Shown: in pieces, positions 41,501 through 53,500 of the stretch
Layout of the letters: every line of letters begins with the position of its first letter
How positions within the stretch are numbered: position 1 is the stretch's first letter
Assembly: GCA_963920595.1 (NCBI GenBank)
Contig: OY986947.1
Location: 2,728,001 to 2,792,000 of the forward strand
Direction: 5' to 3'
DNA from: Eimeria praecox
Taxonomy: Eukaryota
Length of the DNA: 64,000 nucleotides
Notes under the pieces: model-generated
What the model saw: only the letters and a program-made list of their open reading frames with translations
The model's database searches: none
What the model was told of the DNA's origin: nothing
Program-made: the position numbers and the translations under genes

Positions 41501-44500
41501 TTAAAGCAAAACGTCATATCATACTTCTTTTTAAACCACATAGCTGCACAGAATAACTTGCTGCGCCCTCTGACGGGACCTCCCAAGATGTACGGCTCAG
41601 GTTTGTGCCCTTCAGATTAAAGATCAGGACGTAAACGAGCCCTACACTTTAAGGAGCAAAATTGCAGGCTCCGTGATGTTTTCTATGTCGTCCTTTATGG
41701 AGTATGTAAATTTCATTTAGAACTTCAATCCCCAGACAATCATAACATGTACACAGGCGGGAGCGTTCGCTCCCGATCCCCTTGAAAACAGTTGCGCAGA
41801 CAGCAGTGCCCCCGCTCCTGCTCTCCGTGCACAGCACACACGACGCACCTCCTTCATTTGCACTACATCTTTAGCCGACTGGAAGTTCATGCCTTAAATA
41901 GAGCAGGGATGCACCAAAGCTAAAGTAAAGCAAACAACAGGTCTCGAACTGTGCATTCCGGGTAACTCCCCATTTAAACACTATAATCATTCAGCAAGCG
42001 GCTCCCGCAACACACATATATAAAACTCCTGCAACGCGTGCACGCGTTGATATTTGCATTCGTGCTCGTGGGGATGTCCAGTCCGTGCAAGTTCTTCTAT
42101 CACTACTAAAGGCCACGCCACCTTCAGGCCTCGAACAGCGCATTTAAAACAATCTTCTAAATTGCACTCAAGAGCAGAGGCTATAGCTGTACTGCAGTTA
42201 TTAGACAGCATGACGCACAAACTTCATGTCCCAATTGTTCCCTTAATGCACATGGGGGACACCTAGACACCTAGCCCTGTGGAGCAAGCACATGATGAAC
42301 ATGATAGCATAGTACTTTTGGAGAGTCTTGGCTAACACTAGAAAAGTATCCCGGTACAGTCCCCAGACCATCGACTGTCAGTGTCCATAGTGCCGTTTGT
42401 GGTAGCTTATGTGCGTGCTTGCTGCTCAACGAATAGAAAATTGCAGTCACCCACGTCTAGTCGGTGGCAGCTGATAGGCTGTGAAAAAATGACTCCTCGC
42501 TGCAAAAGAGGAGTGCGCATCTCCAGCGAAGATGCCAACACCAGTTGTTTCAAATAAACGAAATATACGTTCAAAAACGAGAGGCCTGTAAACGCTCATT
42601 GCGGAACGTGATGCAGGGGAACTCTCAGAACACATTTCACCAGAAAATAGGCAGCTTTCCCCATCAGATGCATGGCTCACGTACTCACGTTGCAGACAGT
42701 TTGTAACAAACTCAGATTTAAGGTTGGAAGCAATGAGCGTCCAGCTTCTGAATTGCATTTACTTCCTTGCGGTCCTGCTCAAATGGCTTGGCATAGCAAC
42801 GATGCAAATTTCGCTGAGCCCCTAAGATAAGGGCAAACCAAAGCGCAGGGAAGAGTCCAACGGCAAAGCTCTGAACCTTCCGCTGACCCCAAACATGTAT
42901 TCTGGACTTTTCCTTTTAATGAACCGGATTTTGCTCACATACTGCAAAAGAGAAAATCATTCAATTCGCCCTCCAAGACCTATGCACAAAGTAGGCACCA
43001 CTGGCTGATTCTGAACGCTCTGAACGCTCACCAGTGGGCGCTCATCCCTCAGACATCCGTAGCACCTGCGAGAGCATTCCACATTACTGACCTGCCTGGG
43101 TGAGGCCGTATCATTTCTCCTTTCATCGCTTCAAATGCGCATCCGCAAGTTCCCTACCACTAACTAGACAGCAGCTAGCAACTAACTCCCTGCATGCCCG
43201 ATGCAAAGGAAACAGGATAATCGACGCGTTTTAGTAAGAATATCCAGACACATGTAGAAACTTTAGGATCACTCGTCAACTACCAAAAGCATGAGCCCAA
43301 CAACATTCCTGGACTTGCCCGCATCGCGGACCATCATATTCCACAGTAGGGCGCAAAGCTTGGCAGCAACGCACAGGAAGGACAGAGGTTACGCATCCAC
43401 TGATGATTGAAGATCTGCTTTAAATCCGCAAGTAGCCAAAAGCCCACCTGAGCACGTCCCTCACGCAGTGACGAAACTCACCTCCTTCAAAATGAATACG
43501 CTCGACGGCCTTAAGACCTAACTTTGGCATTCACTGTAAATATACTCGCGGTACAACTCAACATGCTTAAAATACAAGCAACATATCACCATACAACGCC
43601 CATGCGCATAATTTCGGGCCGTCAATTCACTTCTCCACCCGCGCCAGGTAGTTGAAGCCGCGGCCTTTGACAATCGTTCGCAGAAGAGTCCGACGTAAGT
43701 CTCCAACCAACGGCCCGGGCCAGTGAGTTTAAATAGGAGAAGGGAACGTGGGACGGAAACGCCTGTTTGCCGCTGACTAAAGGTTATGCACTCCTTTGCA
43801 CCAAAGGCGCAAACATGTTTATCATTCGCCGCGCAACGCACTTGCTTCAACCATACTAGCGCCGTGCTATCACACACACTCTCAAACCTTTGCCTTTACG
43901 TAGGCCGTGACGAGGACATCCGCGTACTTCAGAATGCTCGCGTATGGCTGTTCCCCTCGTCGAGCCTGCAACGCGTGCTTCCAGCAAAATTATCTTCCTT
44001 CACTTGCATCCTCAACACGGCACAGTGTAAAGACTGCGCATGCTTTCATGCCTAGCAGTGCACACTCATAAGTTACCATACGGCTCTGGCGTTTCATGCC
44101 TGCGCTCAGGGACCCTACACGACTGCTCTATATGGGTGAATCCGCACCACTTATACTGGGACTGCTTTCTCCTTTCATCGCTTCAAATGCGCATCCGCAA
44201 GTTCCCTACCACTAACTAGACAGCAGCTAGCAACTAACTCCCTGCATGCCCGATGCAAAGGAAACAGGATAATCGACGCGTTTTAGTAAGAATATCCAGA
44301 CACATGTAGAAACTTTAGGATCATTCGTCAACTACCAAAAGCATGAGCCCAACAACATTCCTGGACTTGCCCGCATCGCAGACCATCATATTCCACAGTA
44401 GGGCGCAAAGCTGGGCAGCAACGCACAGGAAGGAAAGAGGTTACGCATCCACTGATGATTGAAGATCTGCTTTAAATCCGCAAGTAGCCAAAAGCCCACC

Positions 44501-50500: not shown

Positions 50501-53500
50501 GCGCATCCGCAAGTTCCCTACCACTAACTAGACAGCAGCTAGCAACTAACTCCCTGCATGCCCGATGCAAAGGAAACAGGATAATCGACGCGTTTTAGTA
50601 AGAATATCCAGACGCATGTAGAAACTTTAGGATCACTCGTCAACTACCAAAAGCATGAGCCCAACAACATTCCTGGACTTGCCCGCATCGCAGACCATCA
50701 TATTCCACAGTAGGGCGCAAAGCTTGGCAGCAACGCACAGGAAGGACAGAGGTTACGCATCCACTGATGATTGAAGATCTGCTTTAAATCCGCAAGTAGC
50801 CAAAAGCCCACCTGAGCACGTCCCTCACGCAGTGACGAAACTCACCTCCTTCAAAATGAATACGCTCGACGGCCTTAAGACCTAACTTTGGCATTCACTG
50901 TAAATATACTCGCGGTACAACTCAACATGCTTAAAATACAAGCAACATATCACCATACAACGCCCATGCGCATAATTTCGGGCCGTCAATTCACTTCTCC
51001 ACCCGCGCCAGGTAGTTGAAGCCGCGGCCTTTGACAATCGTTCGCAGAAGAGTCCGACGTAAGTCTCCAACCAACGGCCCGGGCCAGTGAGTTTAAATAG
51101 GAGAAGGGAACGTGGGACGGAAACGCCTGTTTGCCGCTGACTAAAGGTTATGCACTCCTTTGCACCAAAGGCGCAAACATGTTTATCATTCGCCGCGCAA
51201 CGCACTTGCTTCAACCATACTAGCGCCGTGCTATCACACACACTCTCAAACCTTTGCCTTTACGTAGGCCGTGACGAGGACATCCGCGTACTTCAGAATG
51301 CTCGCGTATGGCTGTTCCCCTCGTCGAGCCTGCAACGCGTGCTTCCAGCAAAATTATCTTCCTTCACTTGCATCCTCAACACGGCACAGTGTAAAGACTG
51401 CGCATGCTTTCATGCCTAGCAGTGCACGCTCATAAGTTACCATACGGCTCTGGCGTTTCATGCCTGCGCTCAGGGACCCTACACGACTGCTCTATATGGG
51501 TGAATCCGCACCACTTATACTGGGACTGCTTTCTCCTTTCATCGCTTCAAATGCGCATCCGCAAGTTCCCTACCACTAACTAGACAACAGCTAGCAACTA
51601 ACTCCCTGCATGCCCGATGCAAAGGAAACAGGATAATCGACGCGTTTTAGTAAGAATATCCAGACGCATGTAGAAACTTTAGGATCACTCGTCAACTACC
51701 AAAAGCATGAGCCCAACAACATTCCTGGACTTGCCCGCATCGCAGACCATCATATTCCACAGTAGGGCGCAAAGCTTGGCAGCAACGCACAGGAAGGAAT
51801 GAGGTTACGCATCCACTGATGATTGAAGATCTGCTTTAAATCCGTAAGTAGCCAAAAGCCCACCTGAGCACGTCCCTCACGCAGTGACGAAACTCACCTC
51901 CTTCAAAATGAATACGCTCGACGGCCTTAAGACCTAACTTTGGCATTCACTGTAAATATACTCGCGGTACAACTCAACATGCTTAAAATACAAGCAACAT
52001 ATCACCATACAACGCCCATGCGCATAATTTCGGGCCGTCAATTCACTTCTCCACCCGCGCCAGGTAGTTGAAGCCGCGGCCTTTGACAATCGTTCGCAGA
52101 AGAGTCCGACGTAAGTCTCCAACCAACGGCCCGGGCCAGTGAGTTTAAATAGGAGAAGGGAACGTGGGACGGAAACGCCTGTTCGCCGCTGACTAAAGGT
52201 TATGCACTCCTTTGCACCAAAGGCGCAAACATGTTTATCATTCGCCGCGCAACGCACTTGCTTCAACCATACTAGCGCCGTGCTATCACACACACTCTCA
52301 AACCTTTGCCTTTACGTAGGCCGTGACGAGGACATCCGCGTACTTCAGAATGCTCGCGTATGGCTGTTCCCCTCGTCGAGCCTGCAACGCGTGCTTCCAG
52401 CAAAATTATCTTCCTTCACTTGCATCCTCAACACGGCACAGTGTAAAGACTGCGCATGCTTTCATGCCTAGCAGTGCACACTCATAAGTTACCATACGGC
52501 TCTGGCGTTTCATGCCTGCGCTCAGGGACCCTACACGACTGCTCTATATGGGTGAATCCGCACCACTTATACTGGGACTGCTTTCTCCTTTCATCGCTTC
52601 AAATGCGCATCCGCAAGTTCCCTACCACTAACTAGACAGCAGCTAGCAACTAACTCCCTGCATGCCCGATGCAAAGGAAACAGGATAATCGACGCGTTTT
52701 AGTAAGAATATCCAGACACATGTAGAAACTTTAGGATCATTCGTCAACTACCAAAAGCATGAGCCCAACAACATTCCTGGACTTGCCCGCATCGCAGACC
52801 ATCATATTCCACAGTAGGGCGCAAAGCTGGGCAGCAACGCACAGGAAGGAAAGAGGTTACGCATCCACTGATGATTGAAGATCTGCTTTAAATCCGCAAG
52901 TAGCCAAAAGCCCACCTGAGCACGTCCCTCACGCAGTGACGAAACTCACCTCCTTCAAAATGAATACGCTCGACGGCCTTAAGACCTAACTTTGGCATTC
53001 ACTGTAAATATACTCGCGGTACAACTCAACATGCTTAAAATACAAGCAACATATCACCATACAACGCCCATGCGCATAATTTCGGGCCGTCAATTCACTT
53101 CTCCACCCGCGCCAGGTAGTTGAAGCCGCGGCCTTTGACAATCGTTCGCAGAAGAGTCCGACGTAAGTCTCCAACCAACGGCCCGGGCCAGTGAGTTTAA
53201 ATAGGAGAAGGGAACGTGGGACGGAAACGCCTGTTTGCCGCTGACTAAAGGTTATGCACTCCTTTGCACCAAAGGCGCAAACATGTTTATCATTCGCCGC
53301 GCAACGCACTTGCTTCAACCATACTAGCGCCGTGCTATCACACACACTCTCAAACCTTTGCCTTTACGTAGGCCGTGACGAGGACATCCGCGTACTTCAG
53401 AATGCTTGCGTATGGCTATTTCCCTCGTCGAGCCTGCAACGCGTGCTTCCAGCAAATTTAGCTTCCTTCTCAGGTTCTCCCACCGCGATTTGCGTGAGGG

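Follow-up and report, generated by a model that had tools for sequence, protein, structure and literature searches.

What can a tandem array of about 10 kb add to a protein if almost all of its sequence is intron? This question is raised by a locus of Eimeria praecox (assembly GCA_963920595.1, contig OY986947.1), which was analysed in a window of 64,000 nucleotides (positions 2,728,001 to 2,792,000 of the forward strand; all coordinates below are those of the window). The array lies on the minus strand at 43114-53469 and contains 9.84 copies of a 1052-bp unit (nine full units and a further 888 bp). The initial annotation had read two exons of three nucleotides in each unit, and had concluded that the array would encode just (Gln-Glu)10. 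We found both of these sites, together with a third one in the same unit and a chain of such sites that extends over the window. To the resulting interpretation we assign a probability of roughly 0.6: the locus would be a live gene built one codon per exon on the minus strand, in which 1052-bp cassettes, each with three introns and three exons, would have been multiplied by unequal crossing-over or conversion.

The two sites of the initial annotation are present as placed; they lie on the minus strand and do not vary among the 10 copies. The first is a predicted exon CAA (Gln) in the context AAG-CAA-GTGCGTTG (43842-43844 + n x 1052, n = 0-9, the last copy being 53310-53312), and the second is a predicted exon GAG (Glu) in the context AAG-GAG-GTGAGT (43482-43484 + n x 1052, the last at 52950-52952). 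A site model trained outside all three young arrays of the window was applied to the 10 candidates of the unit in which acceptor AG and donor GT are separated by three nucleotides (AG-NNN-GT). The CAA and GAG sites obtained held-out scores of 3.7 and 4.0, with posteriors of 0.97 and 0.98, respectively. A third candidate, GGA (Gly) in the context TGCAG-GGA-GTTAGT (43187-43189 + n x 1052, the last at 52655-52657), is intact in 10 of 10 copies and scored 2.2, with a posterior of 0.89; its acceptor is good and its donor, GTTAGT, is unusual. The posteriors of the remaining seven candidates did not exceed 0.12. The ambiguous hits in the CA run at about 43871-43882, with held-out posteriors of 0.12 and 0.02, had rightly been left out by the initial annotation. 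Two strict sites per unit were obtained by chance in 5 of 5000 Markov-resampled units. Provided that the locus is spliced, GGA is likely the third exon of the unit, and the predicted array product is more likely to be (Gln-Glu-Gly)10, of 30 amino acids, than (Gln-Glu)10; the two-exon unit is thus probably wrong, while its Gln and Glu sites stand. Three exons per unit would predict a (CAAGAGGGA)n run in transcripts, as compared to (CAAGAG)n with two, and for this reason a search of cDNA for (CAAGAG)n would probably turn out falsely negative. The AG of the GAG triplet adjoins the donor, and a zero-length, skipped reading of this site is formally possible.

The sites of the unit belong to a chain on the minus strand that extends from 340 to 63292 and comprises 140 AG-NNN-GT sites with a score above 1 when repeats are included (0.66% of the window) and 95 in non-redundant sequence. 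A mixture model placed about 100 of the 252 AG-NNN-GT sites in the signal class, which has a TGCAG-like acceptor and a GTGCGT-like donor. The distance between acceptor and donor is strict. In fact, 34 of the 40 GTGCGT hexamers on the minus strand of the non-redundant sequence have an AG exactly 3 nt upstream, no other offset between 0 and 15 having more than 3, and none of the 6 hexamers on the plus strand has an AG at offset 3. At offset 3, 85 sites scored above 2, the other offsets having 1-10 and the plus strand 0-5; this comparison is in-sample, the model having been trained on these sites. Of the very strong donors, 26 out of 29 belong to 3-nt sites, which leaves 3, as against 5 on the plus strand; there is thus no need to assume longer exons. 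With a lower donor cut-off, 22 were left over vs. 10 on the plus strand, and a few longer exons are possible. Exon lengths other than 3 nt showed no excess up to 12 nt, save for an echo of the same motif at offset 7, and a scan for branch points gave no clear peak. In its composition and donor usage the window appears similar to coccidian protists. The predicted residues would come in the order of a Lys/Asn repeat, the Gln-Glu-Gly repeat, about 70 mixed residues and a tail rich in Arg, Glu and Lys; the predicted neighbours of the array tract are a Lys triplet upstream and Tyr-Phe-Glu triplets downstream. A chain of about 140 one-codon exons over the whole window would be more surprising than the array alone.

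Do these triplets behave as codons? Since the site model ignores the letters of the triplet, the triplets provide an independent test of phase. No stop was present in the 85 triplets with a score above 2, and one was present among 95 at the lower cut-off. In the two other frames, 4 and 5 of the 56 pairs of close neighbours contain a stop, and one of these stops is located two exons downstream from the array. Single-base differences between near neighbours were synonymous in 25 cases, with respect to 15.3 in order shuffles (p = 0.009). Moreover, triplets for Gln, Glu and Lys were 22 NAA and 3 NAG, with a background of 1690:1894 (p = 2.5e-5); AG-ending triplets may be avoided because they would compete as acceptors. 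These observations support whole-codon exons translated in phase 0, given that no exon of another length intervenes.

Contigs of three runs (two samples, two studies) were compared over 28900-44165; run X1 or run X2 is possibly the source of the window. The head-to-tail joint of the array, 44165 to 43114, is present in contigs of runs X1 (sample S1, study P1) and X2 (sample S2, study P2). Its contig had a depth 8.4 times the mean of six listed single-copy contigs in X1 and 11.4 times that of five of the eight listed single-copy contigs in X2 (those with depths of 30, 15.5 and 53.1 being left out), depth not being the same as copy number. The array is not an assembly artefact, and its size is roughly as assembled. 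The copies are free of indels, with self-BLAST identities of 99.0-99.6%, an average of 5.2 differences per 888 bp and 20 variable columns in total. Of 10 pairs of informative sites, 6 fail the four-gamete test; divergence is greatest in the last two copies, and identical copies are in some cases adjacent and in others five units apart. Such a pattern would result either from unequal crossing-over or conversion or from a mosaic consensus. The array edges, 43114 and 53469, are 73 and 157 nt away from the closest predicted exon, that is within predicted introns, and each unit has 9 predicted coding nucleotides.

The following mechanism may be proposed. Because less than 1% of the locus would be exonic and every exon would be a whole codon, nearly any duplication should break inside introns and leave the frame intact. 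From two copies onwards, the array would be expanded and homogenised by unequal crossing-over or conversion, and about ten head-to-tail copies of the 1052-bp cassette would add (Gln-Glu-Gly)10 to the protein. In the wider form that we consider probable, the live gene would span at least 63 kb (0.7% coding), with an uninterrupted series of more than 140 one-codon exons, and each step of change in its amino-acid repeats would be a kilobase duplication. The length of the (Gln-Glu-Gly)n tract would then be set by a 10-kb array of variable copy number, and the Lys/Asn and Arg/Glu tracts would have been built likewise.

The rest of the window bears on this mechanism. Three young arrays within one locus, as reported in the initial annotation, were confirmed at 2150-13158, 43114-53469 and 54606-62488, and together they occupy 29,248 of the 64,000 bases. 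The array at 54606-62488 (minus strand) consists of 4.9 copies of 1607 bp, with two strong sites per unit (Asn and Lys, with Lys for Asn in one copy). That at 2150-13158 (minus strand) has a period of about 3416-3420 bp, with one shorter step of 3090, and contains 15 strong sites, all of them Arg or Glu. Older duplicates, of 67-73% identity, were found at 6-2469, 5150-5560, 15734-16998 and 54268-63196. The copies of about 1050 bp at 6-2469 (minus strand; 67% identity by BLAST, 73% over aligned columns) have kept Arg and Glu/Gln sites, and a duplicate of part of the 1607-bp unit at 62754-63196 (minus strand; 71%) has kept its site, which is Arg here and Lys in the 1607-bp unit. In six site pairs of the older duplicates, 30 of 30 core letters are kept (chance 0.72^30 = 5e-5, which is overstated). 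These pairs encode Glu/Glu, Arg/Arg twice, Gln/Glu, Lys/Asn and Lys/Arg, that is, identical or mostly conservative residues. The idea, already contained in the initial annotation, that amino-acid repeats are made by kilobase duplication of cassettes with 3-nt exons is supported by these sequence statistics, namely the three young arrays and the older duplicates with their sites kept, the splicing itself being predicted. The annotation had also proposed that the preservation of frame in whole-exon duplication could explain the occurrence of three arrays; this accounts for why such arrays are tolerated, but not for their being favoured.

The central non-repeated stretch (19500-43000, minus strand) contains 62 strong sites, with 26 hydrophobic residues, and is probably the folded part of the predicted protein. 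No kilobase duplication was found between 19.5 and 43 kb, all those found lying in the flanks, which have 25 charged residues out of 33 predicted. This distribution fits tolerance of duplications in disordered parts and selection against them in a folded part: they would most likely persist in the charged flanks of low complexity and be eliminated from the centre.

It is conceivable that the same mechanism operates with two exons per unit and that GGA is a chance match in a 689-nt intron, in which case the product would be (Gln-Glu)10. We consider this unlikely. It is true that GTTAGT occurs in only 1 of the 95 strong donors, namely that of the GGA site itself, that the looser pyrimidine-donor class CAG-NNN-GT[CT]-N-G shows no enrichment at offset 3 (8 vs. 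1-10), and that introns of at least 689 nt occur (in 4 of 86 or 7 of 77 intervals); the first two of these points count directly against the third site. However, besides the held-out posterior of GGA, the class TGCAG-NNN-GT-N-N-G, with 18 sites at offset 3 vs. 0-4 at other offsets, and the class [ACT]AG-NNN-GT[CT][AC]GT, with 7 vs. 0-3 outside the unit, are both enriched, and the introns given by three exons (357, 292 and 394 nt) fit better with the median predicted intron of the window (360 nt). A somewhat more doubtful alternative is that the exons are real but serve as optional cassettes, in the style of flatworm micro-exon genes (MEGs), which would result in a variable mix of Gln, Glu and Gly and in a repeat number independent of the genomic copy number. 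Exons of 3 nt can be skipped without frameshift, as MEG exons are described to be (PMC7653826, PMC4350168), and each of the three sites has a weak part, be it an AAG acceptor, the GTTAGT donor or an AG-ending triplet. On the other hand, AAG acceptors are ordinary in this window (15 of the 95 strong sites), the avoidance of NAG suggests selection for precise inclusion, and the central part resembles an ordered domain.

It also seems improbable that the locus was formerly spliced in this way and is now dead, or disabled by the array, which would then be neutral repeat DNA. Dead DNA tolerates tandem expansion most easily, and no sign of selection is visible inside the array. Nevertheless, the sites are sharp over 63 kb, the array is present in two samples, and none of the 40 differences listed, out of 482, falls on the AG, the GT or the +5 G of a scored site, the one triplet change being Val to Ile, although these are too few for a test. 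Very improbable, finally, is the possibility that the motif is not a micro-exon at all, being instead a protein-binding motif or a series of way-points of recursive splicing with 3 nt removed later, or that the unit carries an open reading frame or a structured RNA. Each unit does contain an open frame of 125 amino acids, and the splicing of about 140 consecutive 3-nt exons would be mechanistically demanding; yet the triplets are codon-like, and offset 0, which is the signature of recursive splicing, is not enriched. The 125-residue frame was rejected as a gene: frames at least as long occurred in 299 of 1000 resampled units, all three distinct substitutions change the residue, and no Pfam family was matched. 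A Pfam search of 8 other open reading frames gave no match above the curated cut-off. An array of RNA genes (5S, tRNA, snRNA, spliced leader) was discarded as well, with 0 Rfam matches and 0 tRNA in the unit, undescribed families not being covered by this search.

Several points weigh against the one-codon-per-exon gene that we favour. No start, stop or long exon was found in the window, and the 5' end of the gene and its other end are outside it. The absence of stop triplets, with 2.1 expected (p = 0.068), is weak on its own. The six old site pairs are related by descent and had been selected by score; the evidence for a spared central part consists of about 4 independent events and is partly circular. 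The four-gamete pattern could stem from a mosaic assembly consensus, and the array copies are too similar to reveal selection on their own sites. The identification of the central segment as an RRM, prompted by a motif, failed: the best of six site thresholds gave 1.1 bits, a value reached by 16 of 500 shuffles, and the other five were reached by 89-365 of 500, with a profile built from 119 bacterial RRMs and not eukaryote-wide.

Known systems resemble this locus in part. The cytoplasmic tail of chicken BG1 is reported to be encoded by a cassette of short exons that occurs in one to three copies in the DNA, a variation attributed to unequal crossing-over, and the amino-acid repeats vary in number with it; the exons of BG have a length of 21 nt (heptads), four per cassette, and are proven by cDNA (PMC5043582). 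As in BG1, cassette expansion here would alter the number of amino-acid repeats, and the units carry whole exons, have their breakpoints in introns and keep the frame, on the basis of predicted exons. Differently from BG1, the exons here would have 3 nt, so that each residue takes up about 350 bp of DNA; there are ten copies, and three arrays in the one locus, and the exons are predicted from DNA. In flatworm MEGs, as reported, most coding sequence resides in very short, frame-preserving exons between far longer introns; there are 10-20 exons, mostly of 15 bp (6-81 bp, or 3-81 in an abstract), a signal peptide and exon skipping, and one exon duplication is reported for MEG-3 (PMC10526429, PMC4350168, PMC7653826). 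The operational rule for MEGs (at least seven exons, half or more of them below 70 nt and divisible by three, in runs of at least four; PMC7653826), describes the present locus by prediction only, with its about 140 consecutive 3-nt sites, whereas the exon number and size typical of MEGs in that literature do not, all sites here being of 3 nt. With respect to the MEGs so described, the predicted product is charged, has a globular-looking middle, and its N-terminus lies outside the window. The locus may therefore work like an extreme MEG without being classed as one.

In human duplicated genes, the number of internal tandem repeats changes that of amino-acid repeats while the frame is kept; these repeats are reported to lie within exons or at exon-intron boundaries, whereas the repeat described here is 99% predicted intron (PMC2812944). 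That a 3-nt exon can be spliced is indicated by Drosophila homothorax, which has an isolated 3-nt micro-exon; exons of this type, as presented there, are single among ordinary exons and not in chains or arrays (PMC7392893). Our literature search, which left most subscription journals and all supplements outside, found isolated 3-nt exons and no chain or array of one-codon exons. Expansion of exon cassettes is thus known from BG1 and would here be at its limit, the one-codon version not having been found in print.

If confirmed, this would be an extreme gene architecture, in which a whole region of the protein is encoded at one amino acid per exon, and the spliceosome would need to put together hundreds of 3-nt exons in the right order. 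Such genes would escape both gene finders and read aligners, and may for this reason be absent from annotations. It would also become testable in what way long series of 3-nt exons are processed by the spliceosome (whether by pure intron definition, and in which order the introns are removed), and whether low-complexity repeats arise by kilobase duplication instead of slippage, with an intron record that can be dated.

Some other features of the array and of its surroundings were observed. Four nearby strong sites at 41849-43844 (minus strand) have the common acceptor TGAAG instead of TGCAG. A candidate exon of 25 nt at 43375-43399, with a strong donor (score 5.8), was rejected, as it would cause a frameshift and each of the three frames would run into a stop inside the array, and so was a GC-donor candidate at 44008-44010, GC donors not being enriched at offset 3 (5 vs. 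2-11). A segment of 164 bp (44002-44165, no strand assigned) occurs only between array copies, nine times, and shows no significant match to either flank (similarity not above that of shuffles) or elsewhere in the window. Just beside it, at 43983-44001, loose contig ends in X1 and X2 match the flank past 53469, and in X2 a second form of this edge, with an apparent short inverted piece, was seen by eye. On the minus strand, 54808-55989 and 53313-54393 are gaps of 1.1-1.2 kb without a strong site, which may hide weak exons, so that the Asn-Lys unit may have more residues.

A second, diverged haplotype is present in patches over 28900-44165 in all three runs, at about one third of the depth in both samples. 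One of its contigs has 24 changes and 6 gaps in 334 letters; a mixed population, ploidy or a paralogue are possible. This haplotype turns the predicted exon at 38827-38829 (minus strand) from Val to Ile in all three runs, which is the sole triplet change listed. At 25498-25581 (minus strand), three candidates lie inside 85 bp, one of them a stop triplet (score 2.0). Not all of them can be exons, and an exon of 6 or 11 nt is possible there. Finally, a microsatellite of 1.1 kb, of the TA/TATATC type, occupies 27640-28783, within the longest predicted intron (1954 nt), and a (TA)30 run is located at 18114-18173.

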